A DNA stretch of 64,000 nucleotides, taken from sequence record OL770107, one strand, 5' to 3'. Below are positions 3,437 to 28,722 of the stretch, piece after piece (positions within the stretch are counted from its first letter, which is position 1; every line of letters starts with the position of its first letter). Made by a program: the position numbers and the translations under genes. Under the pieces are notes generated by a model that was not told where the DNA came from, searched no databases, and saw only the letters and a program-made list of their open reading frames with translations. Origin of the DNA: Escherichia phage CLB_P2.

Positions 3437-4444
3437 TTAGAATTCGAAGATAATGTTAATTTCTTCGGTTTGGTCCATGGAACGAATAACCGGAGGACGG
3501 TTTTCCATATAAATCATTTCACCGGAGTGGCGGGAGAGATCTATAACGTCATAGTACTCTTTTTCGGCTTTAATGATCGGGTCTGATGGATGGGCTTTAG
3601 CTTCCAATGGGTTGGAAATTATTGAAAGTTGTCTAAATCCTTTATTCCCCGGCAAACTAAATTCAGGGAAATAAACTGAATCTAAGAATGCTTTAAAACG
3701 AATAGTATTGCCTTTAATACGATAAATCAAGCCATAATCGTCTTGTTGCCAAGTGAGGTTATTCTCATATCCCCAACGTTCAGGGTCTTCAGCAATTTCT
3801 TCCGGCCATGGAACTACAATATATTCATTGGTACAACGGTTGATACTTACATCAGGTGGAATCTCATAAAGATATTCCCAAAGATAGCCATCACCGGTGT
3901 CTACCATACCTTCTGTATCGCCTTGTCCTGCCGGAGCTTTAACTGAAGGGACGTTTGCGGTCCATTTACCACCAAGTTTAATACACTCGGTTTTATTATC
4001 AAGAGATAAAATAGAGCATGCTCCGGATTCAGGAACATCCACACAACGATAAACCATCCAACCTGCACCAACATCAGTACGGTTTTGCGGCTGGCTATTC
4101 GCCACTACAATTTCACCAATCTGGAATGTGAAAGGATTAGGATAAGAGGTATCGCCCCAGTCTTTGCGAGGAACAACACAATCCAACATACTCTTATAAA
4201 CCTTAACACAACCCATCATGTTTGTCCAGACGTCCTCTACGCCCTCAGAATCATCTACAGGATACGGTGGAGCAAAGCCTGGGTCGTTTTCGTTAGGAGC
4301 CCATGGTTGGGCTCTCCCGAAAGATACATACATCGTGTTCTGGTCTTCACCATCACCGATTGTTCTGTAAAAGTTGTACATCTTTTCCGTTCTAAATTTA
4401 GAAGTAACAATAGAACGATATATTACTGTTGAATTAATCATCAA
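3437..4444 (-). CDS. 8: baseplate wedge subunit gp8
   Basis: 335 aa (T4 gp8 334 aa); synteny between gp7 and gp9. Confidence 0.75.
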   Translation of the reverse strand: MMINSTVIYRSIVTSKFRTEKMYNFYRTIGDGEDQNTMYVSFGRAQPWAPNENDPGFAPPYPVDDSEGVEDVWTNMMGCVKVYKSMLDCVVPRKDWGDTSYPNPFTFQIGEIVVANSQPQNRTDVGAGWMVYRCVDVPESGACSILSLDNKTECIKLGGKWTANVPSVKAPAGQGDTEGMVDTGDGYLWEYLYEIPPDVSINRCTNEYIVVPWPEEIAEDPERWGYENNLTWQQDDYGLIYRIKGNTIRFKAFLDSVYFPEFSLPGNKGFRQLSIISNPLEAKAHPSDPIIKAEKEYYDVIDLSRHSGEMIYMENRPPVIRSMDQTEEINIIFEF

Positions 4445-7554: not shown

Positions 7555-9513
7555 TTATATTGTAATAGGTTCTAATTCAATGGTCGTGTATTGAGGGCGG
7601 AGGTCATCTTCAAATACGATTAATGAACCATCTTTTGTAAAGATGTTATCTTGGTCAGGTCCCGCATAAAGTTCTATAGATTGAACTTCAAAACGGTCGG
7701 ACGTTAAACCAATAGCCGCGATGTCCCAGAAAATGAAATCTGAATAATAATCGATTTCACCTATAACGTAATAAACGGATTGGTCTGCAGGAGCAGGCAT
7801 TTTATCAAAGTCATTTCCTGTATATGGTTTAATATATTGGTTTTCAATTACATCTCCTGGACGGAAAGGCCCAATAACCATTTTACCATCACCACGTTCG
7901 TCTTTATCTGTAGCGGCAATTCGTACATTATATGCCGGGTGGTCTTCAGAAACGTTAGTAGGGACAAACTCAAATTCACTAGAAACCACAGAACGGTTAG
8001 TGTATTGATTATAGTATTTAATACCTGACTCAGGAGTTTTGAAAAAGTTCAATACCTCACGAACCATTGTTATGGTAGCAGAGGAGCCTAAAATACTATG
8101 GTCTGCATTATCAATATAAGTCAGCATTTTTGACTTAGCGAATCCATGGTTAAAAATTTCTACTTCATTAATATAATAACGGTCTATCTGAGAAAGAATT
8201 TGAGCCGATAGCCACTGTTCAGATTCCTGTAATTTATTCAAGGCATATGATACCTTAATTTTATGCTTTAAGAACAAATAATCAGGAGAAATAACAGAAG
8301 CGGTAATAGGGGCCAAGTTAAATTCTTTTAGATAGTCTTGGATATCTTCACGTTGGACCGCGGTCAAATATAGCCCTGATTTAGGTTTAATGGTGACAAA
8401 AGCATAACCGGGTTTATTTGGGTCTGTAAAGGTTTGTACTGCTTGCACTATAGAACCAAAACGTTCAGATACGAATGTATCATAGTCGGTTCCTGTAACA
8501 GCACGCATCTGGGCTTCACGCTTAACTACCGCCAATTCACGGATTCGTTCAATATCTTCAGGGTCACCACCACCATCAGCACCAACATAATCCGGGTCGT
8601 CATTATAGTTTTCAGTGATTTTTTCTACGGTTATATAAGCTAGTGAGTCTGCATAACTGAAGTCAACCGCGCCGTTAGCAACTTCACCATCTGTACGAAG
8701 ATATTCGATGACGATAGTAGAATCTTTAACAGGTTTTAGACCGCCGATATAATTAGCTTCCAATACTCCACCTGCAACAGATTTTTCGGCTTCACCCTCA
8801 CCAAAGAAGAATTCTGTATTACCATCTACGGTTTCACGCATATAATAAATTGTTGAAGTACTACCAGCGTGGACCATTGATTTATTAGTCCAGTTAATCC
8901 ATTCTGCACCATCAACATAAAGTCTAACTTCTTGTCTATCGATATCAGGGTCACGAATAAGAATAGGAGTTTTAGGGTCATATTTAAGTTCAGTACGAAT
9001 AATACGTCCCTGGGCCAAAGAAACAATAGGCCAATACTGATTATTAACGTCTCGCACTGCGATAACGTTATCAGTTGTCACAAAAGAATATGGGTCTGCT
9101 GATGTATCACGTGCATAAGCCAAGAATTTGGTACCTCTAGGGATACGAATATTCTTTTCATTAAGGGCTTGCGTGCATGTGAGCATTACCGTAGTTTTAG
9201 CTGCAGACTTAGAACTAGGGAGATATCCATTGTCTTGTGCAGCTTGGACAACCGAAGAACGAAGGTTTGCTGTTCCTATAAAAGATTCGTATAAAGCTGT
9301 GTTAGCAAATTGCTGCATATAAAGGGTATTATAAGCAAGCATATCAATAAGGATATTCATTCGAGAACCAACGAAATCATAATCCTTAAATTCGTCCTGG
9401 CTGGAAAGCCAGTCTATAATATTCTTTTTAATTTCTTCAAACGTAGCTCCCACAAATACTTTTGGGATAGCGTTAACGGTTCTTGTTAATTGGTAATTCG
9501 TAGGAGTAGCCAT
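7555..9513 (-). CDS. 6: baseplate wedge subunit gp6
   Basis: 652 aa (T4 gp6 about 660 aa); synteny; SD GAGGAG upstream of gp7 in the short intergenic region. Confidence 0.8.
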   Translation of the reverse strand: MATPTNYQLTRTVNAIPKVFVGATFEEIKKNIIDWLSSQDEFKDYDFVGSRMNILIDMLAYNTLYMQQFANTALYESFIGTANLRSSVVQAAQDNGYLPSSKSAAKTTVMLTCTQALNEKNIRIPRGTKFLAYARDTSADPYSFVTTDNVIAVRDVNNQYWPIVSLAQGRIIRTELKYDPKTPILIRDPDIDRQEVRLYVDGAEWINWTNKSMVHAGSTSTIYYMRETVDGNTEFFFGEGEAEKSVAGGVLEANYIGGLKPVKDSTIVIEYLRTDGEVANGAVDFSYADSLAYITVEKITENYNDDPDYVGADGGGDPEDIERIRELAVVKREAQMRAVTGTDYDTFVSERFGSIVQAVQTFTDPNKPGYAFVTIKPKSGLYLTAVQREDIQDYLKEFNLAPITASVISPDYLFLKHKIKVSYALNKLQESEQWLSAQILSQIDRYYINEVEIFNHGFAKSKMLTYIDNADHSILGSSATITMVREVLNFFKTPESGIKYYNQYTNRSVVSSEFEFVPTNVSEDHPAYNVRIAATDKDERGDGKMVIGPFRPGDVIENQYIKPYTGNDFDKMPAPADQSVYYVIGEIDYYSDFIFWDIAAIGLTSDRFEVQSIELYAGPDQDNIFTKDGSLIVFEDDLRPQYTTIELEPITI

Positions 9514-11011: not shown

Positions 11012-12754
11012 TTAGCCAATGTCAATCCTCGAACCATCAATAGTATATTGACCGGATGCAATAGAACTCATAGTCGACATAGTTTCAGACCAATTACCAG
11101 CAACAGTCATATCAACGTTTCCATTTACCGACCATTTAACGTTTCCATTTACTGTATAATCATGGTTACCTTCAACTAAGGTTTTTGCATCACCTTTAAC
11201 AGTTATATCAGCATTGCCTTCAACAATAACCGTAACATTTCCTTTAACAATAAGGGTTCCGTCGCCTTCTACCGTTTTGGTTTCGTTACCACGAATATGG
11301 ATGCTTTCAGAACCGTCAGTTTGACGTCGAACATTTGCCATATTATAATAGGTTTCATCACCACCTATATTGACTTTATTATTACCGCCAACATAAGTAT
11401 TAGAATCGCCTTGGGTCATATAATATCCGTCGGCTACGGTCTTAGAAGTTTTACGTCCATCAGGAGCAACTTCTTCATAACTACCTGTAGGGTGAATTAA
11501 TCGGTAACGTTCTTGCCCTGGTGTGTTATCGAATTCTTGGATATGCCCGCCTTCAGTTTGCATGGTTTGGACATATGGATATTCGCCTTTATAACTGGAA
11601 TCCGGCTCTTTAAAAAGAATCCTTGTATCTTCTGGAGTCCATGGGTCGGCTGGGTCTGAATTTGTAGGGGCTGCAAAGGTTTGAATCATCCTATAAGAAC
11701 GGCCATTAAATTCTCTTTCTTTAGGGGCCATAATACCGTATGATTCCATATTACCGGTAAGGATAATCATTGATACCCTTGAGGCACGTCCCTTAGTTTG
11801 GTTAAACCATACTGAATTACGAGCTTCCTCAAATGCCTTTTTATAATCGCCTATTAACATAGCACTGAGCATACCACGGAATTTAGCAAGTCCACCTAAA
11901 CCCATTTGGAAAGCCATGTTTTCAAGGGCCATTTGTCTTGAACGGTTTTCTTTATTGTAAACAGGACCTACAACACTATGCCTACCTATATCGTTTTGAA
12001 CTTTTTTAAGGTCTTCCTGGAATAACTTAGAAGCCTCGTCCATTGATATTGCACCTGGATTACCTTTAACTTCTCGACCTATTTGATTAGATAATATTTT
12101 GTTTATCTGGGTCATATCTCTAATAGGTTGTGGTGTAATAAGGTGACCTATACCAATAGTAGGATATCCTTCGGTGTCCCAATATACCTTCAGTCTAAGC
12201 CCTTCATCACGATGAAGCATGTTTTCTATTGTGAAATTAGGATTATCATCAGGCTTAACTTGGCTTAAATCCAAACCGTCAGGATTAATACCTACATCAG
12301 TGTTTGCATCTTGTATTACGTTAGAAGTGGCATCATATCCAACTTCACCACCTCGGTTTAGTGCAGCGGCATCATTACCTAAATAAAGCGGATACTGCCC
12401 TGTAGGGTCACTAAAACCTTCGTTTGGATTTGCCTTTTGTTTTGATGCTGAACCGTATGTACCGAGGACGAGCCCGTTTAATTTCCACTTATCAAGAAAA
12501 TGGCCATAAACTTGTGTACCAGGGACCATACCAGTCATGGCGGTTTGGATACCGGAAACAGAGGCAGAAGATGTAGGCATTAATACCGACATCCATGGTA
12601 AATCTTCCGTACGAAGGCCTTTTACAGGGCCCTGTACTTTTTCATACGGGTGCATACCCCATACGCGTACGCGTACACGACCTTGTTGGAGTGGGTCCAT
12701 TCGGTCTTCAACTACACCGACGAACCAACTTACGTTATCAGACATGTTAATCAT
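11012..12754 (-). CDS. 5: baseplate hub subunit and tail lysozyme gp5
   Basis: 580 aa (T4 gp5 575 aa); lysozyme-domain motif YWDTEGYPTIGIGHLI; C-terminal beta-helix repeats (VxGxxxxxV pattern). Confidence 0.9.
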   Translation of the reverse strand: MINMSDNVSWFVGVVEDRMDPLQQGRVRVRVWGMHPYEKVQGPVKGLRTEDLPWMSVLMPTSSASVSGIQTAMTGMVPGTQVYGHFLDKWKLNGLVLGTYGSASKQKANPNEGFSDPTGQYPLYLGNDAAALNRGGEVGYDATSNVIQDANTDVGINPDGLDLSQVKPDDNPNFTIENMLHRDEGLRLKVYWDTEGYPTIGIGHLITPQPIRDMTQINKILSNQIGREVKGNPGAISMDEASKLFQEDLKKVQNDIGRHSVVGPVYNKENRSRQMALENMAFQMGLGGLAKFRGMLSAMLIGDYKKAFEEARNSVWFNQTKGRASRVSMIILTGNMESYGIMAPKEREFNGRSYRMIQTFAAPTNSDPADPWTPEDTRILFKEPDSSYKGEYPYVQTMQTEGGHIQEFDNTPGQERYRLIHPTGSYEEVAPDGRKTSKTVADGYYMTQGDSNTYVGGNNKVNIGGDETYYNMANVRRQTDGSESIHIRGNETKTVEGDGTLIVKGNVTVIVEGNADITVKGDAKTLVEGNHDYTVNGNVKWSVNGNVDMTVAGNWSETMSTMSSIASGQYTIDGSRIDIG

Positions 12755-20792: not shown

Positions 20793-20795
20793 AAT

Positions 20796-20868: not shown

Positions 20869-21462
20869 ATGAATACTTTAAAGAAAATTGTTGAATTCAT
20901 CCGTTCTAAACTGGGTACCGCGATGACTCAGAACCTGTCAATCGAAGACCAGTATACTAAAGCTGCTTCTACCCTGATTGATAAAATTACTGAACTCCAG
21001 ACTGCTCATGTTAAGTCGGTGAATGAAGAAAAACGTATTCGTGAACTTGCTAACGAAAAAGACCAGCTCGCTGCTTCTAAAGAACGTGAAATTCGTAAAC
21101 TGATTAAAGAAGGCGCCGATGTCCAGGTGCATGCTAAACTTGGCCTCCTTTATCGTCGTACCGCTAATCAACTTCGTAAGAAAGCAGACGATTATATCGA
21201 AATGCGTAATGAAATTAAACTGAAGGTCAAGGAACTTGATGACTCTCGTCAAGAACTGGCTGTTAAGCTCGAGTACATCCGTGAAACTCGTAATATGGCT
21301 GCCCTTGGTATTGCTACTGCCGATGATGTGGTTGAAATCGCTGCACTGACTAAGATTGATATTGAAGATACCCTGCTGCGTGTAGAAACGTTTAAAGGCC
21401 CACAAGTTGGAATGGATACGACTTCAGCCGATATCGAAGACTACATTAATTCACTTAAGTAA
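20869..21462 (+). CDS. coiled-coil protein, PspA/IM30-like (tentative)
   Basis: 197 aa, heptad-rich helical sequence with charge pattern reminiscent of PspA/Vipp1; start at ATG after SD AAGGA. Confidence 0.35.
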
Positions 21463-21510: not shown

Positions 21511-22053
21511 ATGAGTTTATATGATAACCTTATATCAAATATTGATTGGTTTAAAAATAGTGGTCTTTCCCATGAAACCAATTCAGTTCTTTATAGAATT
21601 CGCCAAGACCTAGGCTATTCAAACGATTTCTTAAGCAGAACATCTAGCCGTGGCGATACTACCAAATTACCTTTTATTTTTGCTTTAGCTGAAGACCTTT
21701 CTTTTGAAGATGCTTTGGAAATTATTGACGTAAATCTGGCTATTCAACGAGTGGAATTCGCTGGACTACGTTATTCAGTATATTCTTTAAATGAGAGCAA
21801 TGATTGTGTGCTTCTTAATATGGCAGACGATGATTACCATTTAGTATGCTATGTGGCTTTAGAAAATGGTGATGTATTTGGAATGGTCGACCGTCGACCA
21901 TCTTACACTGATATTAAAAATTATGATAAAGCCGAGCTTGGTATCTTAACTGCTGAGTACACATTAGAAAGTCGTAAACAACAACGGAAGCTTAATCGCT
22001 TTATTGCTGAATGCCGTGAATACGCTAAAGAGGTCCAAAATGGAACGGCCTAG
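21511..22053 (+). CDS. hypothetical protein
   Basis: 180 aa ORF with SD GGAGGAGAGG upstream. Confidence 0.5.
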   Translation: MSLYDNLISNIDWFKNSGLSHETNSVLYRIRQDLGYSNDFLSRTSSRGDTTKLPFIFALAEDLSFEDALEIIDVNLAIQRVEFAGLRYSVYSLNESNDCVLLNMADDDYHLVCYVALENGDVFGMVDRRPSYTDIKNYDKAELGILTAEYTLESRKQQRKLNRFIAECREYAKEVQNGTA

Positions 22054-22393
22054 TCTTTCATCGCATGTTTATCAATTGGCTGAATATGATATTGCTATTT
22101 CCTTATTCACGGGAATTGTCACAGGTATGCTCGGCGGTCTGGTTGGTCTGGTAATGACCACAGTTATGGCTGCAATCGAAGGAGTCATGCCTATTGAGAT
22201 GGGTTTCTATATGATAATTGCTCCGGCTGTCGTGGCTTATTTTATCCCTCTCGTGTATGATATTTGCCATACAAATGCTTTGAATGCTCCCATCCGTAAG
22301 AGATATGCTTTAGAGATGGCTAATTATAATGAGTATGTAAAACAAACCAAACGTAATGACCTTGAAACCTTTATTAAGGAATGTAAATCATGA
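22040..22393 (+). CDS. membrane protein (paralogue of 26944-27531)
   Basis: Two or three hydrophobic helices; C-terminal TKRNDLETFIKECKS matches TKKNTLNSFIEECRK of the 26944 protein. Confidence 0.45.
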   Translation: MERPSLSSHVYQLAEYDIAISLFTGIVTGMLGGLVGLVMTTVMAAIEGVMPIEMGFYMIIAPAVVAYFIPLVYDICHTNALNAPIRKRYALEMANYNEYVKQTKRNDLETFIKECKS

Positions 22394-22680
22394 ATAAAAT
22401 TGAAATTGAAATCCCTGAATACAACGACGAGAAATCTGCAGAAAAAGCTATCTATGCCCTGCTCGGTAAAGTAGATATCATCGAATCCAAATGTGAAGCT
22501 ATTGCCGATAAGTACGGTATTCAATTCGGAACAGGTGATTATGGCTCAGGACGTACCTACTACCCTGTTGGTTATGAATGCTCCCAGTGGTTTAAAGATG
22601 AAATTGAAAACAATGGCGGTGAAGTTGAAAATGGCGTCGTTACAGTTGGTGCCTGGGTCTCCTCTTCGGCAATGTGCTAA
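22390..22680 (+). CDS. small protein, W-x-SS-x-C family member 1
   Basis: 96 aa; C-terminus GAWVSSSAMC; ATGA overlap with upstream gene. Confidence 0.5.
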   Translation: MNKIEIEIPEYNDEKSAEKAIYALLGKVDIIESKCEAIADKYGIQFGTGDYGSGRTYYPVGYECSQWFKDEIENNGGEVENGVVTVGAWVSSSAMC

Positions 22681-22689
22681 GGAAAAGCT

Positions 22690-22971
22690 ATGATGAATGA
22701 TAATCATAACCATCCAGAGCTTCTGGCCGCAGTAAAAGAAATTCATGAAGCTATTCGTCGTGCCGAGGAAATTGCAGACAAATATGAGACTCATTTTAAT
22801 ATATACCCTGCTCGCGGTATGGGCGGTGACTATTATTCTCCTGGCGCCTTGAAAGCTGACCTTGCCCATTGGGAAGAAGATGGTCATCCTGAATGGGCTA
22901 TTGTTAATACTCATGACTATACAACTGACCTCGCAACTGGCGGTTGGGTGTCCTCTTCTTCTGAATGTTAA
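22690..22971 (+). CDS. small protein, W-x-SS-x-C family member 2
   Basis: 93 aa; C-terminus GGWVSSSSEC; shares ADKYxxxF segment with member 1. Confidence 0.5.
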   Translation: MMNDNHNHPELLAAVKEIHEAIRRAEEIADKYETHFNIYPARGMGGDYYSPGALKADLAHWEEDGHPEWAIVNTHDYTTDLATGGWVSSSSEC

Positions 22972-22980
22972 GGAAATATT

Positions 22981-23178
22981 ATGTCTCGTGAATTAGATTG
23001 TGCAATCCGAACTGCCGCTGCGGCAATTGAAAACGTTATTCAAATTTGTAAAGAAGAACGCGAAGAAGCTGATATCTATATTGATGGTGCTCGTGACTTA
23101 GAACGACATATAACGCTTTATAACGGTTGTATTACTATTAGTGGTACCTCTTGGGTGTCCTCCTCTTACGAATGCTAA
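22981..23178 (+). CDS. small protein, W-x-SS-x-C family member 3
   Basis: 65 aa; C-terminus TSWVSSSYEC. Confidence 0.5.
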   Translation: MSRELDCAIRTAAAAIENVIQICKEEREEADIYIDGARDLERHITLYNGCITISGTSWVSSSYEC

Positions 23179-23187
23179 GGTAATAAA

Positions 23188-23400
23188 ATGACTATTGATG
23201 AAATTGAAAAACAAATCCGTGAATTAGTACGTAAAGGTCAGTCCGTGGCTGACGAAACAGGTGAAGAGTTCCATGTTTCCGGCCGTGGACAATACATTTC
23301 CCCAAAGAATCCGGAATATGATGATTACGAATGGGTCCGTGATGATTACGGTATCCCAGATGGTGAAGGTTTCTGGTTTACATCCTCTATGTCTTGCTAA
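23188..23400 (+). CDS. small protein, W-x-SS-x-C family member 4
   Basis: 70 aa; C-terminus GFWFTSSMSC. Confidence 0.5.
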   Translation: MTIDEIEKQIRELVRKGQSVADETGEEFHVSGRGQYISPKNPEYDDYEWVRDDYGIPDGEGFWFTSSMSC

Positions 23401-23409
23401 GGTGATAAA

Positions 23410-23634
23410 ATGTCTAATATTAATGAATTAGAAAAAGCAGCTCTTGAACTGGCTGCGCTGTATAAGAAAGTAAAAGATATGGCTTCTGCTCAGGATTTTG
23501 GTGTTGAGCTTGATGATTATGATGGTGAAGTTCGTCTTGAAGATTGGCTGAATAGCTCTTGTTATGGTGAAGAAGCTGGTCGTACCTTCGTTGCTCGCTC
23601 CGATGGTAAAATCTGGTACCCGAGCTCATGCTAA
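23410..23634 (+). CDS. small protein, W-x-SS-x-C family member 5
   Basis: 74 aa; C-terminus KIWYPSSC. Confidence 0.45.
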   Translation: MSNINELEKAALELAALYKKVKDMASAQDFGVELDDYDGEVRLEDWLNSSCYGEEAGRTFVARSDGKIWYPSSC

Positions 23635-23855
23635 AATTAAAGAAAAGATACATTCATAAAATAAACGGTCTTCGCGATTATGCCAAAGGTTGGCCGTTAA
23701 GTATTATTATGGCTGATAGACACCCACGTTATAATACTGAGATGGTCTATTATAAAAAGTATGATTCATATTGCCGGTCTAAAGCAGGTCGTTTAGATGG
23801 TTCTTATGAAGAATACTTTGGTAAAAAACCTACTCGTATTTCGTTAGGAAAATAA
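23628..23855 (+). CDS. hypothetical protein
   Basis: 75 aa ORF overlapping the end of member 5; start uncertain. Confidence 0.3.
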   Translation: MLKLKKRYIHKINGLRDYAKGWPLSIIMADRHPRYNTEMVYYKKYDSYCRSKAGRLDGSYEEYFGKKPTRISLGK

Positions 23856-23885
23856 TTTAGCCACATGGATGTGGTAGGAGGACTT

Positions 23886-24215
23886 ATGCACAAAGATTCA
23901 GTATTCAAATATCTTTTGAAAACAGATAAAGAATTCTATATGAATGGGCAAGCTTTCTTGTTCGTTCGTGGTAAACGTGAGATGTTTTATAAGTGCGACC
24001 TCTCAATGCACCATCATATGTATCATACCCACGGCGAGCCTATACTAGGGTTCTCCGGTGACGAGACTAGACACATAGCCATGTACTACGACCATTTTAA
24101 GCTCAATGATTGTGGTGACAACGCTCTGGTCTGGAATCCATCTTGGCGGCGTTGGGATACAGTAGACAGCGATAAATTATTTTTAGAATATTGCAGAAGT
24201 GATGTACAACTCTAA
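23886..24215 (+). CDS. hypothetical His-rich protein
   Basis: ATG preceded by SD AGGAGG; contains HHHMYHTH stretch. Confidence 0.45.
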   Translation: MHKDSVFKYLLKTDKEFYMNGQAFLFVRGKREMFYKCDLSMHHHMYHTHGEPILGFSGDETRHIAMYYDHFKLNDCGDNALVWNPSWRRWDTVDSDKLFLEYCRSDVQL

Positions 24216-24259
24216 AAACTTGTGTTACTATTACCTTACACAAACATGAGGAGAACATT

Positions 24260-24499
24260 ATGTGGTATTACTCTCCACTGTCTGATAAGTCTGATGAGCC
24301 GGTACGCATTAGTCGTGCCAAGTTTAAAAAGATTTATGGCTTTGCCTATAAGAAGTCTGATTATGGTGTTCGTTTTGAAGACGCTCACTGTATCAACGAC
24401 CCTTATGCCGAAGAAATCTCTAATGAGATAATTCCTATCATTAAGAATAATTCTGATGATATGTGGGAATTGCATAACGATTACGTTGCTGAAATTTAA
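24260..24499 (+). CDS. hypothetical protein
   Basis: 79 aa ORF with SD GAGGAG upstream. Confidence 0.45.
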   Translation: MWYYSPLSDKSDEPVRISRAKFKKIYGFAYKKSDYGVRFEDAHCINDPYAEEISNEIIPIIKNNSDDMWELHNDYVAEI

Positions 24500-24520
24500 G
24501 TTTACTCTGAGGAAAATATT

Positions 24521-24673
24521 ATGTATAATGTTCTTATTGTTTTTGTTACTCACCCACAAGGTGGCGTAAGGCAGAATACTTCCCAAGTGGTCCAATTTTC
24601 TTCACTAGAGGCTGCTAATCTAGCCGCAACGCGTATTGAAGCAAAAAATCTGAACTGGGTAAATATGAAGTAA
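24521..24673 (+). CDS. small hypothetical protein (50 aa)
   Basis: ATG after conserved GAGGAAAATATT leader; below the track length cutoff. Confidence 0.3.
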   Translation: MYNVLIVFVTHPQGGVRQNTSQVVQFSSLEAANLAATRIEAKNLNWVNMK

Positions 24674-24700
24674 CTCGTCTTTATTAATGAGGAAAATATT

Positions 24701-25660
24701 ATGATGCTAGTTATTGGTTCTCGTGCACTGCACCACGCTGGTCTGATTGAAAGTAAGTATATCGAAAATTCTGATTGGGATTTCATTGCCGACCAAGGCT
24801 CATGGAATCAATTTAAAGCCCGGATGTTCGGCGCCCATGTTCCTGTGGATAATCCAGATGTCCAGGCCTTTAAATGCATGCACAACGGTAAAGAAACCTA
24901 TTTTGAAGCTTATATCGTCCGGGCCCTGACTAACGTACGAGAAATCACCGGTGAGCTTCAGGACGAAGATTTCACCTCAAGTTATCGTCTTCTGAAATAT
25001 GCCGAAAATCATATTAAAAAGGACCGTCTTACGGGTTTCTATTGGGCCACACCTGATATCTGTCTGGCCATCAAAATGAGCCATCGTTATTTGAAGAACA
25101 ACCCTTTCTTTTTGAAGACGATGTCCCACATCAAATACCTTCGTAATAAAGGTGTAACCTTGAATGAAGAGCTCCAAGAAATCATGCTGCAACGTCAGAA
25201 AGAAACGTTGAGCTATTCTCATCCTAAATTAGATGTAAACAAATCATCGTTCTTTAATGATACCATCTATACATTAGACCACGACTCTATTCATGAAGCT
25301 GTGGCATTAGCCGGACGCCCAGCGTATACCTTTTATATGAAAGATGGTTCTGAAGTCATGACCTCTCGTGAGAAGTTTGAAGCTTTGCCTGAAGCTATTA
25401 AACTGGCAGGGGTTTATGAAGAAGCATGTGTACTTGCTCTAGAGCGTTCGCAGGTTCCTAATGACTTTAATATCCCAGCTGCTACAAGTTTCTATATGGC
25501 TCTTGAGAAAGTGTGCACCTCAATCACTTCAGGTTGGTTCCGTGAGTATGCCTGGGAAAACTACCAAGCTGTAGTGAATATGTATAGGACCCTAGGTGAA
25601 AGTGACTACATCAACCGGTTTAAGCGTAATCAACATTTAATTCGTCCTTTCGAAAAATAA
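24701..25660 (+). CDS. hypothetical protein, possible nucleotidyltransferase-fold N-terminus
   Basis: 319 aa; N-terminal IGSRA...SDWDFI loosely fits the G[GS]...D.D nucleotidyltransferase signature, but spacing is longer than typical. Confidence 0.4.
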   Translation: MMLVIGSRALHHAGLIESKYIENSDWDFIADQGSWNQFKARMFGAHVPVDNPDVQAFKCMHNGKETYFEAYIVRALTNVREITGELQDEDFTSSYRLLKYAENHIKKDRLTGFYWATPDICLAIKMSHRYLKNNPFFLKTMSHIKYLRNKGVTLNEELQEIMLQRQKETLSYSHPKLDVNKSSFFNDTIYTLDHDSIHEAVALAGRPAYTFYMKDGSEVMTSREKFEALPEAIKLAGVYEEACVLALERSQVPNDFNIPAATSFYMALEKVCTSITSGWFREYAWENYQAVVNMYRTLGESDYINRFKRNQHLIRPFEK

Positions 25661-25673
25661 TTGCATAAAACAG

Positions 25674-25712
25674 TGTACAAGGTCTATAGGTGTGATACTA
25701 TAGACCTATCAA
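25674..25712 (+). promoter_or_regulatory. early promoter / stem-loop cassette (PeSL-like)
   Basis: GTGTAC -35-like; inverted repeat ggtctatag/ctatagacc around GATACTAT; conserved leader. Confidence 0.5.
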
Positions 25713-25738
25713 AACAACAGAGTGAAATGGAGAATAAA

Positions 25739-25951
25739 ATGAAACTTTCTAACCAAGCAATCAACATGTTAAACGAAGTTCGTGCAGCTGGTGCTAAATG
25801 TCTGATGGTTAACACTCGTGACGGTGACCTTCGTCAAGCATTTGGTGAATTGAAATCTGCTGACCTGGTTAAATGTTCGGTTGGTATCGGTAATGCACTT
25901 CGTGTATCCTTATCCCCTAAAGGTAAAATGTACTTTTTCAACAAAAAGTAA
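25739..25951 (+). CDS. hypothetical small protein
   Basis: ATG after conserved leader GGAGAATAAA; 70 aa. Confidence 0.45.
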   Translation: MKLSNQAINMLNEVRAAGAKCLMVNTRDGDLRQAFGELKSADLVKCSVGIGNALRVSLSPKGKMYFFNKK

Positions 25952-26016
25952 TATACATTCTCGTAAGATATGTTATTATAGACCTATCAAAACAAATGAG
26001 TGAATTGGAGAATAAA

Positions 26017-26247
26017 ATGAAAGCCATCATGAGTGTTTTAGCCCTGAGCTTGGTTGCTTTAGCTGCAGTTCCTTTTATTGTTGATGTTGGAGACGAAACA
26101 CAAGTTGAATCCTCAATCGTTGTCAGTAAAGATGGTACATCGGTTAAGATCGGTAATAATCTCCATATGAATCCTAATGGTACTTTAGGTGTTCAGCTCG
26201 GTAACACATGTGTAAGCACAACTGGTAAAGTTAATACTTGCTTCTGA
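26017..26247 (+). CDS. small secreted or membrane-anchored protein
   Basis: N-terminal hydrophobic signal-like segment; preceded by a near-duplicate of the 25674 promoter-leader cassette. Confidence 0.45.
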   Translation: MKAIMSVLALSLVALAAVPFIVDVGDETQVESSIVVSKDGTSVKIGNNLHMNPNGTLGVQLGNTCVSTTGKVNTCF

Positions 26248-26257
26248 GGAAAATATT

Positions 26258-26944
26258 ATGAACAGCCCAAAAACTTTTAATTCTCAAGCTCGTGCAGTAG
26301 GCGGTTTCGCTGGTAAAATTTCTAACGATAAAATCAAAAACGAAACTATGTTCTTCAACAGCTCATTGGCTTTCGCTTTTGATAATGGTGGTCCTATTAC
26401 TCGCAGCTTCATCATGAACCTACCAGATGAGTGGAACACTGACCAGGTTGTATTTGATTCCCGAGTTCATATGCTTATGCCTGGTTGGTATCCTGCTATC
26501 CCAGGTTATCACCATGATGATGTACCACGTCCGGATATTCCGGTTGGTCAACACTTTATTACTGCAGGGCAACCTGATTATGATAACCCTCGATACCATT
26601 CTGAACATATTCTTGGTCTTGTTAACGCTGATGTGTGTCCTACTTATTTTGCAACCGGAACTGCACAATTTAGCCAGATTCCTGAAGGCGAACTTATCTA
26701 TCGCCAGTGGCATAAAGAAGTTCTGGAAAAAATTGAGTCCAATGAATTAACCAAGTGGGATGCTCCTGACCGTACATTGCTCCAGTTTGATTGGCAGACA
26801 TGGCATACAGGTTCCCGCGCAGTAAGTAACGGTTGGCGTTGGTTTGGCCGTGTGTCTCGTAATACCGACCGTGTTAAAAAGATTACAAATGAAATCCGCG
26901 TTAATGCTCAAGTATATCTGGAATTCCCTATGGAGGGCTGGTAA
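26258..26944 (+). CDS. hypothetical protein
   Basis: 228 aa ORF; Trp- and His-rich; no motif recognised. Confidence 0.5.
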   Translation: MNSPKTFNSQARAVGGFAGKISNDKIKNETMFFNSSLAFAFDNGGPITRSFIMNLPDEWNTDQVVFDSRVHMLMPGWYPAIPGYHHDDVPRPDIPVGQHFITAGQPDYDNPRYHSEHILGLVNADVCPTYFATGTAQFSQIPEGELIYRQWHKEVLEKIESNELTKWDAPDRTLLQFDWQTWHTGSRAVSNGWRWFGRVSRNTDRVKKITNEIRVNAQVYLEFPMEGW

Positions 26945-27531
26945 TGGCCCTTTATGAACCTGGTTGCATGGGTGTTGATGTAAACTTCATCCGTCGGTCT
27001 GAAAATGCCGGAATCATTATCCCAAGTGGTGAGAATATGATTATTAAAAAGTCCTGGCGAAATATTGATGATGGTGATGAAGGAATTTCAGCCAGTACAG
27101 TAGATTGGTCAGGTTGTACTGCTGAAATGAAACAACTTTTAATTGAGGAATATAAAATGGGCTATATCATAAATGGTTGGCAACCGGAACCCCATAAAGA
27201 ACAGACACCAGACCCATTGATTTGTTATAGCAAAAAATACGGCTTTCGTACATGGAGTGATGAATACGACAAATTAGTGAGTTCTAGGTTCTATGTTTGG
27301 ATGGGGATATTATTTTTCCCACTCCTAGGGTTTTTCCTGACAACGGATAATGACCTGCCTATTACGCTATTTGCTTCAGCGATGTCTGCGGCTATCTTAG
27401 GACTTATCGCATCATTTTTATGGACTGCAGTTGTTGAAGTACCTTTTCGTATTTCTAAAGTTAAAAAGGTATATGACGATATCACTAAGAAAAATACATT
27501 AAACTCTTTTATTGAGGAATGCCGTAAATGA
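26944..27531 (+). CDS. membrane protein (paralogue of 22040-22393)
   Basis: C-terminal hydrophobic helices and shared C-terminal TKKNTLNSFIEECRK motif. Confidence 0.5.
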   Translation: MALYEPGCMGVDVNFIRRSENAGIIIPSGENMIIKKSWRNIDDGDEGISASTVDWSGCTAEMKQLLIEEYKMGYIINGWQPEPHKEQTPDPLICYSKKYGFRTWSDEYDKLVSSRFYVWMGILFFPLLGFFLTTDNDLPITLFASAMSAAILGLIASFLWTAVVEVPFRISKVKKVYDDITKKNTLNSFIEECRK

Positions 27532-28233: not shown

Positions 28234-28722
28234 ATGGATATTTTTGATATGTTACGTCAAGACGAAGGTCTTGATTTAAATCTTTATAAAGACACCGAAG
28301 GTTATTGGACTATTGGTATAGGCCAGTTAGTTACCAAGAACCCATCTAAAGATGTTGCTCGCGCTGAACTTGATAAGCTTATGGGTCGAGTTTGTAATGG
28401 TCGTATTACTATGGCTGAAGCTGAACAACTCTTTAATCGTTCAGTGGAAAATGCTCGTAGAGCTATAATGCGCAATCCTAAATTAAAACCGGTTTATGAT
28501 GTGCTGGACGAAGTTCGTCGTTGTGCATTGATTAATATGGTCTTCCAAATGGGTGAAGCTGGTGTAGCGGGATTTACCAACTCTCTGCGTATGCTCCAAC
28601 AAAAACGTTGGGATGACGCCGCAGTTAACCTGGCGCAGTCTCGTTGGTACAAGCAAACCCCGAATCGTGCCAAGCGTGTTATCGCCACCTTTAAAACAGG
28701 TACTTGGGCCGCTTATAGATAA
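28234..28722 (+). CDS. e: endolysin (T4 lysozyme e)
   Basis: 162 aa; [17 protein letters not shown] and [30 protein letters not shown] match T4 lysozyme. Confidence 0.9.

Follow-up and report, generated by a model that had tools for sequence, protein, structure and literature searches.

The e.3- and e.2-like membrane proteins of Escherichia phage CLB_P2 appear to belong to a set of early proteins with a common C-terminal tail

We analysed the locus of two small membrane proteins in a 64,000-nt stretch of Escherichia phage CLB_P2 (sequence record OL770107; hereafter the window, numbered from its first letter). The stretch belongs to a T4-type phage that is JS98-like (Dhakavirus), and the 6.8 kb around the interval between the two genes are 92-98% identical to JS98, dhabil, dhaeg, and other Dhakaviruses. 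Both open reading frames (ORFs) were found where they had been predicted, at 22040-22393 and 26944-27531, and the tails TKRNDLETFIKECKS and TKKNTLNSFIEECRK were confirmed at the protein ends, following transmembrane (TM) segments. Downstream on the + strand lie nudE, lysozyme gene e (28234-28722), and denV. The interval is the counterpart of the T4 stretch that holds early ORFs e.8 to e.2, from the tRNA cluster to nudE, and represents the e.6-to-nudE part of the early-gene 'hyperplastic' region. In this respect, the locus is an ordinary T4-type hyperplastic region. The genes of main concern are as follows.

20869-21462, + strand: e.6 orthologue, 197 aa from the T4-type start (the frame is open from an ATG at 20794), directly upstream of the tail genes
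21511-22053, + strand: e.5-like soluble protein, 180 aa, with tail RKLNRFIAECREY (FIAECR codons at 22000-22017); phrog_8788; found by motif scan
22040-22393, + strand: e.3 orthologue, 117 aa, with a predicted two-TM hairpin, a lysine/arginine (K/R)-rich, presumably cytoplasmic helix, and tail FIKECKS
26944-27531, + strand: e.2 orthologue, 195 aa, with a conserved N-terminal part, a predicted two-TM hairpin, a presumably cytoplasmic helix, and tail FIEECRK

Judged by sequence comparison, the two ORFs at 22040-22393 and 26944-27531 are orthologues of T4 e.3 and e.2. The 117-aa protein matched phrog_2330 end to end (E 2.7e-46; residues 1-117 on 1-122 of 122) and T4 e.3 in BLASTP (E 4e-8 over 121 aa, 21% identity), and its orthologue in phage VR7 carries the annotation e.3. 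Its start overlaps the end of the e.5-like gene by 14 nt, and the order of e.5/e.4 followed by e.3 is common to ten other genomes. The 195-aa protein matched phrog_2203 (E 1.1e-70) and T4 e.2 (BLASTP, E 3e-14), with approximately 30-34% identity to T4 and RB6 e.2 (33% over 84% of the query length for RB6). Furthermore, it carries the N-terminal signature of the e.2 family, W-x-x-L-D-D...V-D-W-x-G-C, and PF26896, a model that was not part of the Pfam version scanned, is listed in precomputed annotations for all its close relatives. One 78-aa ORF lies between the e.2-like gene and nudE; in RB6, e.2 adjoins nudE. Scans of the interval with Pfam and NCBIfam gave no match for the e.2-, e.3-, and e.5-like proteins, for R132 (described below), or for any other ORF, with the sole exception of a 319-aa DUF7277/DUF7275 protein, while PHROG scans of the interval ORFs returned family numbers only, every family being of unknown function.

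Compared with RB6, the e.2 gene of the T4 reference genome (NC_000866; 4492-4961 of the fetched locus, minus strand) is broken up by two frameshifts that compensate each other, and because of them its product lacks the tail. The annotated T4 protein has 102 aa and ends inside the first TM segment, T4T annotates e.2a and e.2b, and codons for the tail NLNNFITECRK persist further downstream in the original frame; the intact form in RB6 has 162 aa. At the other end of the gene, the CLB_P2 protein opens with a 31-residue extension (MALYEPGCMG..., 26944-27036) that is kept in relatives with in-frame indels down to 45% identity, and therefore the start at 26944 looks genuine in Dhaka- and Gapriverviruses. 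A shorter form is annotated in JS98 and VR7, and the extension is absent from Mosig-, Tequatro-, and Kanagawavirus.

Hydrophobic segments were located at residues 17-52 and 48-77 of the e.3-like protein and at residues 116-134 and 137-168 of the e.2-like protein. The segment that follows the hydrophobic pair holds eight K/R in both proteins and, given the positive-inside rule, is predicted to be cytoplasmic. An AlphaFold2 model of the e.2-like protein, which is of low confidence (predicted local distance difference test (pLDDT) 60, with the N-terminal 52 residues below 50), places helices at 105-133 and 140-194, the second TM helix running on into the tail.

As word-indexed protein searches gave only close relatives of the e.3- and e.2-like proteins, alignments were built from phage loci. 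The cross-genus alignments drew on Dhaka-, Gapriver-, Mosig-, Tequatro-, Kanagawa-, Marfa-, and Moonvirus loci, and those of the e.3 and e.2 families contained 10 sequences each from six or seven genera. BLASTP between the two CLB_P2 proteins gave E=2e-4 with 28% identity over 58 aa. Profile comparison of the two families with hhalign reached 90% probability and E=1.4e-6, confined to the last 20 columns (101-120 versus 168-187). The TM hairpins did not align in hhalign, and relative to the e.3-like protein the e.2-like protein carries an unrelated N-terminal part of approximately 115 aa. The original prediction had described paralogous membrane proteins derived from a duplicated anchor gene. 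The likeness of the tails is indeed beyond chance, but paralogy over the full length is not supported, nor is a duplicated anchor gene, since only the 13-20-aa tail is common to the two proteins and the same tail also occurs on e.5, e.4, and other bodies.

The tail follows the consensus Φ-x-x-F-[IV]-x-x-C-[RK]. We scanned the complete genome (171,787 bp; 622 ATG-initiated ORFs of at least 40 aa) for F[IVL]..C[RK] in the last 25 aa. The motif was present at 5 ORF ends versus 0.37±0.61 in shuffles, and four of the five lie inside 21.5-27.5 kb. The fifth, at 11297-11500, was rejected as it runs antisense within a 580-aa gene. Besides the e.3- and e.2-like genes, the scan found the e.5-like gene, whose product had no TM segment in hydropathy analysis, and the ORF at 23865-24215, which ends in KLFLEYCRSDVQL and is probably a fourth tail bearer by its sequence. 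The tail stands out in the family alignments as well. Its C and R are the sole invariant columns of the e.2 family across genera, the e.5 family has five invariant columns, three of which are F, C, and R of the tail, and the tail residues F, E, and R, together with one other position, are invariant in the e.4 family. The variants include FIAECR, FIKECK, FITECR, FIKGCR, WIKGCR, FINSCR, FVDQCR, and FIKHCR, and many e.3/e.4-type members have V, M, S, or L in place of the Cys. Comparison of e.4 with e.3 using hhalign gave 95% probability and E 3.3e-8 over 74 columns, through the second TM segment, the basic helix, and the tail, and at the sequence level these two are true paralogues (two-TM hairpin plus tail). 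The e.5 family aligned with e.2 or e.3 over 13 tail columns only. On these profile alignments, e.2 and e.5 bear the same 13-20-residue tail on unrelated bodies.

The tail is also widespread outside CLB_P2. The T4 proteins end in ...EFVIDCRKIK (e.3), ...KFVKESRCKSQS (e.4), and ...KFVKECREYVK (e.5), and RB6 e.2 ends in ...NFITECRKLK. Further bearers are a 101-aa protein (gp249) inside the block of Mosigvirus ST0, which ends in ...NLENFIKECRGK, and two e.2-like genes of Klebsiella phage EI; tails were also found in Kanagawa-, Marfa-, and Moonvirus, Aeromonas phage 31, and three metagenomic T4-like genomes. Tail genes differ in how far the Cys codon lies from the next ATG (6 to 66 nt). Given that this distance and the x positions vary while the motif residues stay, selection appears to act on the peptide. 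The helical hydrophobic moment of the 13 tail residues is high, and Φ(-3), F, I/V, and C share one face. The alleles of e.3 and e.2 within Dhakavirus are only 50-57% identical and assort independently. For example, phages 04086 and 005 combine the other e.3 allele with the CLB_P2-type e.2 allele, and ABTNLsp5 has the other allele for both genes. The variable part of the e.2 alleles is the TM hairpin, and one allele type resembles T4/RB6 e.2. Literature searches on e.2-e.5 and on phage PspA returned nothing relevant, and we regard the e.2-e.5 tail family as modestly new.

The e.6 orthologue of CLB_P2 is 74% identical to T4 e.6. Its AlphaFold2 model (pLDDT 74) comprises an N-terminal helix (a0), a long hairpin, and the short helices a4 and a5, an order of helices consistent with the ESCRT-III-type layout (a0, a1-a2/3 hairpin, a4, a5). 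In a Foldseek search of the PDB with this model, the top nine matches were all Vipp1/PspA (E 6.5e-3 to 7e-2; TM-scores 0.45-0.53), and a profile of the broad e.6 family matched Vipp1/PspA among PDB sequences (E 3.4e-4 to 3.4e-3), the alignment being colinear from residue 1. Neither phmmer nor a narrow e.6 profile gave a PspA match among PDB sequences, and the CLB_P2 protein itself had no Pfam match (none to PF04012 at E≤0.1). A distant family member (P0122) matched PF04012 at E 1.3e-4 with 22.1 bits, below the cut-off of 33.9. The family comprises 46 cluster representatives, all of approximately 200 aa, and the orthologue in phage EI was labelled 'shock protein A' by an independent annotator. 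Fold modelling and profile searches thus make it probable that e.6 is related to PspA/Vipp1. A tail-bearing protein was encoded directly after e.6 in 10 of the 11 distinct lineages examined. We found no paper describing T4 e.6 as PspA/Vipp1-like (ESCRT-III superfamily), and the link of e.6 to the tail genes is likewise modestly new.

Between e.3 and e.2, the following genes were annotated.

22390-23634, + strand: array of five small paralogues (96, 93, 65, 70, and 74 aa) ending in W-x-x-S-S-(x)x-C
23628-23855, 23865-24215, 24260-24499, and 24521-24673, + strand: four small ORFs in PHROGs of unknown function
24701-25660, + strand: DUF7277 plus DUF7275 protein, 319 aa (Pfam E 4.7e-27 and 2.6e-78)
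26258-26944, + strand: R132 (RB69 ORF132c family), 228 aa, better conserved than any other gene in the interval

The array of five paralogues with a shared W-x-x-S-S...C end, as originally described, is real. Four members belong to phrog_899 and the third to phrog_4882, and orthologous arrays of 2-7 copies are present in all six block-bearing genera. The end motif stands directly before the stop codon, and the fifth paralogue has it twice (WLNSSC...WYPSSC). Among the four small ORFs, the first, second, and fourth are lineage-restricted and the third (24260-24499) is widespread, according to a presence/identity matrix of 15 loci. The DUF7277/7275 protein is 66-98% identical in all block-bearing genera examined (66-86% between genera), and R132 is 74-90% identical between genera, compared with only about 20-35% for e.3 and e.2. 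Relatives of R132 were found in 472 phage records, including Aeromonas, Klebsiella, Mycobacterium, Gordonia, and Bacillus phages, with approximately 79% identity in Aeromonas T4-likes and approximately 30% in Mycobacterium, Gordonia, and Bacillus phages. Its pattern H-H-D-D...W-H-T-G might point to a metal-binding enzyme. The core of the block, namely the array, the DUF7277/7275 gene, and R132, is the best-conserved part of the region.

The gene order is e.6, e.5, (e.4), e.3, the block (array, third small ORF, DUF7277/7275, variable slot, R132), e.2, and nudE, and the order of the block is held in Dhaka-, Gapriver-, Mosig-, Kanagawa-, Moon-, and Marfavirus. The locus of VR7, which represents Gaprivervirus, has neither e.6 nor e.5. 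The Tequatrovirus phages T4 and RB6 have no block genes at this locus, and a 4-nt overlap joins e.3 directly to e.2. Among Escherichia-phage records, 492 have e.2 versus 200 with R132, and these record counts suggest that Tequatroviruses lack R132 altogether. Loss of the block in the Tequatrovirus lineage is the parsimonious direction, rather than insertion in the lineage of CLB_P2. A crossover between the two tails was rejected as the origin of the T4 arrangement, since such an event would leave e.3 joined to the tail of e.2 with the body of e.2 lost, and T4 and RB6 keep both genes whole. The slot between the DUF7275 gene and R132 has different content in almost every genus. In phage 005 (5195-5845 of the fetched locus) and VR7 (7608-8258), it holds a 216-aa gene annotated as an HNH endonuclease. 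These two phages belong to different genera, and the annotated DUF7275 gene of phage 005 is approximately 100 nt shorter (864 versus 960 nt). The HNH-like gene may be a free-standing insertion of the homing type.

More distant relatives show other arrangements. One (L025) has three tail-bearing TM genes, R132, and then one further tail-bearing gene, another (L022) has e.2-type genes upstream of R132, and in Aeromonas phage 31 the DUF7275 gene lies on the opposite side of e.6. In a third (L024), five tail-type TM genes stand unbroken in a row after e.6, and other genes therefore probably came between the copies of a duplicated set at a remote time. The remote starting point was probably a contiguous paralogue array that was interleaved long ago.

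Turnover within the genus affects single cassettes and not the whole block. Three features are involved.

22026-22047, + strand: repeated junction of a Shine-Dalgarno (SD) sequence and the ATG of the next gene, site of e.4 cassette loss
25664-25951, + strand: early-promoter/leader cassette 1 (25664-25744) and small ORF s1 (25739-25951); repeat family D1/D2
25952-26244, + strand: indel module, a 293-nt unit, of early-promoter cassette 2 (25942-26022) and ORF s2 (26017-26247)

The 22-nt junction aligns twice in the dhaeg locus (3500-3521 and 3845-3866), where the copies flank the 324-nt e.4 gene. This gene is absent from the CLB_P2 stretch, whose sequence corresponds to the e.5-end copy before the ATG and to the e.4-end copy beyond it. 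From this alignment, the e.4 unit is read as removed from ATG to ATG by crossover in the repeated SD-ATG junction; the e.5-like tail is left intact and the downstream gene still coupled. An apparent size difference of 1.8 kb relative to dhaeg was an artefact of a joined repeated promoter match, the real difference being the 324-nt e.4 cassette. Further downstream, s1 is present in all Dhakaviruses examined. The s2 module is precisely missing from JS98 and ABTNLsp5, with a joint of 1-nt microhomology, and s2 was found only in CLB_P2 and dhaeg among the loci examined. The s2 product opens with a strongly hydrophobic segment of 26 residues, like a signal peptide or membrane anchor, and Edwardsiella phage PEi20 (8128-8325 of the fetched locus) has a similarly placed, lipoprotein-like ORF of 65 aa.

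Both promoter-leader cassettes of the original prediction are genuine, though they are copies of a generic element, holding two of the ten copies of the early-promoter core of this phage. The 14-mer TATAGACCTATCAA, which comprises the end of the -10 box and the start of the leader, occurs 10 times on the + strand of the window between 17032 and 39522, versus 0.7 expected, and several copies share a further leader of approximately 30 nt, AAAACAACAGAGTGAA-GGAG. Early transcripts would therefore begin with a near-identical 5' end. The T4-type early promoter (TTTACW-N17-TAYWAT) of cassette 2 was recovered by scan at 25952-25979 (TATACA, 16 nt, TATTAT), and that of cassette 1 was read from the repeat alignment at 25674-25701 (GTGTACA...GATACTAT). 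Cassette 1 also contains a perfect 9-bp inverted repeat (GGTCTATAG, 8 nt, CTATAGACC; 25681-25706) that overlaps the -10 box, and its left arm is absent from the other cassette copies. No terminator-like stem-loop was detected between 19981 and 29500 using a simple scan, which may miss weak stem-loops of the PST/T4 type. Taken as a whole, the block is not the variable unit that had been proposed: its core is the best-conserved part, and variation within Dhakavirus is piecemeal, by single genes. Presence or absence as a unit at these boundaries does hold for T4 and RB6, which lack the block. The suggestion that cargo was inserted between two copies finds little support, as the block is common to six genera with R132 at 74-90% identity and loss in Tequatrovirus is parsimonious; what may survive of it is the remote event described above, not a recent arrival of cargo.

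Overall, the best explanation, and one that we consider probable by a modest measure, is that e.3 and e.2 belong to a set of e.2-e.5 genes unified by the tail and enclose an old, mostly conserved block, and that the tail would act as a docking helix with e.6 as the candidate partner. The tail would lie on the cytoplasmic side, ending a basic helix that continues the last TM segment, and would form an amphipathic helix with F, I/V, and C/V/M on one face. As membrane hairpins and soluble proteins end in the same peptide, they may share a site for docking or assembly at the inner membrane, on its cytoplasmic face, and we propose that the tail is a motif with this role. It could bring the membrane hairpins, the N-terminal domain of e.2, and the soluble e.5 to one partner early in infection, while the membrane-embedded parts would diversify fast, as independently assorting alleles of approximately 50% identity within the genus, and the tail would remain fixed. 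The best candidate for the partner is the putative PspA/Vipp1-like e.6, encoded directly upstream. This mechanism is proposed because of the analogy with cellular PspA and its small membrane partners: pairing of e.6 with the tail would parallel that of PspA homologues with PspB/PspC or LiaI.

Several points weigh against this explanation. The assignment of e.6 to PspA rests on scores below threshold, no Foldseek E value reaches 0.001, and long helical hairpins draw spurious matches. In the most distant e.6 homologue examined (L023), e.6 is followed by a protein without the tail, and VR7 keeps e.4, e.3, and e.2 with their tails though e.6 and e.5 are missing from its locus. The replacement of Cys in many e.3/e.4-type tails means that thiol chemistry is not general. 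The absence of the block genes from T4 beyond the 11-kb locus is read from record counts, and the direction of change, loss in Tequatrovirus, depends on the accepted genus relationships.

The tail might instead be a protein motif that does not dock e.6 but mediates oligomerisation among the members (e.g., tethering e.5 to the hairpins), lies on the membrane surface, or binds a host protein in superinfection exclusion or counter-defence. We regard this as possible, though on the unlikely side. The amphipathic character of the tail suits it, the fast-diversifying, independently assorting alleles of the membrane parts are as expected of host-interaction genes, and VR7 has tail genes in the absence of e.6. 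Nevertheless, it leaves the tight neighbourhood of e.6 and a following tail gene across deep divergence unexplained, though shared ancestry of the cluster could give the same pattern. In the opposite direction, the docking idea could be extended so that the e.6-e.5-(e.4)-e.3...e.2 cluster would be the phage counterpart of Psp/Lia modules, with e.6 as a PspA/Vipp1 (ESCRT-III superfamily) protein and a fast-diversifying set of adaptors that would each plug into it via the same C-terminal F-[IV]-x-x-C-R helix; the cluster would serve the phage in managing the inner membrane early in infection. We consider this extension unlikely.

The scenario of the original prediction, in which a membrane anchor gene was duplicated and a mobile block of cargo was then inserted between the copies in this lineage, appears quite unlikely. 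The direct adjacency of e.3 and e.2 without the block in T4 and RB6 would fit it, as would the uninterrupted tandem arrays of tail genes in distant relatives such as L024, and a contiguous state probably once existed. Nevertheless, the alignment of e.3 with e.2 covers the tail and nothing else, and six genera have the block at one and the same position, its core being much more strongly conserved than what flanks it. R132 and DUF7275 are old genes of the T4 superfamily. In addition, the interval has no integrase, transposase, or flanking repeats beyond the 20-nt homology of the tails.

Very unlikely, in our view, is a nucleotide-level reason for keeping the tail, whether as part of the region that starts translation of the next, overlapping gene or as a short substrate of recombination through which cassettes stay exchangeable. 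Every tail does lie just upstream of, or overlapping, the start of the next gene, the e.2-like codons ATT GAG GAA supply a downstream SD sequence, the tail codons of the e.5-like and e.2-like genes are identical at 19 of 22 positions (repeat family D6), and the e.4 deletion joint falls in the repeated SD-ATG junction beside a tail. The crossover, however, lies in the SD-ATG and not in the F..CR codons, and the Cys codon stands anywhere from 6 to 66 nt away from the next ATG. F, C, and R are kept across genera while the intervening residues and the flanking DNA change completely, and A+T-rich codon bias accounts for the shared TTT, ATT, and GAA codons. Chance likeness between two lysine- and glutamate-rich C-termini is virtually negligible as an explanation, for although the match is short and BLASTP gave only E=2e-4 in a single comparison, the profile-profile E value is 1.4e-6, the motif count of 5 versus 0.37 expected is confined to 6 kb of 172 kb, and tail residues are invariant across genera in three families.

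Returning to the tail as a proposed docking helix of the e.2-e.5 set, we note that the earlier finding of a bracketed block reduces to a known phenomenon, namely the gain and loss of cassettes in T4-type hyperplastic regions of non-essential early genes. A shared tail on unrelated bodies offers a concrete handle on T4 e.2-e.5, which have long been without an assigned function. Were e.6 confirmed as a membrane remodeller of the PspA/Vipp1 type, phages would carry their own version of a universal membrane-repair system. The e.4 deletion, for its part, is a clean example of how repeated overlapping stop/start junctions permit the exact in-frame removal of one gene.

The closest comparison is with T4 itself. 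The CLB_P2 genes share with T4 early ORFs e.2-e.5 the place between e.6 and nudE, the lengths, and the C-terminal tail, and with T4 e.3, e.4, and e.2 the two-TM hairpin. They differ in that the body of the e.5-like protein gives no BLAST match to T4 e.5, and that the four genes are contiguous in T4 whereas e.4 is missing in CLB_P2. At the level of the region, hyperplastic regions and modular shuffling by promoter-early stem-loops (PeSLs) have been described in T4-type genomes, and the stem-loops of PST/T4-type PeSLs are weak (Arbiol et al. 2010, PMC2839356; Comeau et al. 2014, PMC4122927). Similarly, the CLB_P2 locus contains non-essential early ORFans that differ between close relatives by whole-gene cassettes, and s1 and s2, the ORFs that differ, have copies of the early-promoter cassette (TTTACA-N16/17-TAYTAT) on their flanks. 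In contrast to PeSLs, no stem-loop was found beside the cassette promoters using a simple terminator scan, the s2 joint has 1-nt microhomology and does not reflect promoter-promoter crossover, and the e.4 cassette was exchanged via a repeat at the coding end and SD-ATG, not via a promoter. Finally, cellular PspA homologues are typically encoded with the small TM partners PspB, PspC, and LiaI, and a survey of PspA homologues does not mention viruses (PMC11237479). The phage cluster differs from these Psp/Lia modules in that it has no regulator and is phage-encoded, e.2-e.5 have no detectable sequence relation to PspB, PspC, or LiaI in Pfam and NCBIfam, e.6 is only marginally PspA-like, and the interaction is hypothetical. 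What the cluster may have in common with the modules (PspA with PspB/PspC, or LiaH with LiaI) is its composition, a putative PspA/Vipp1-like protein, e.6, encoded beside several small membrane proteins with predicted cytoplasmic C-terminal helices.

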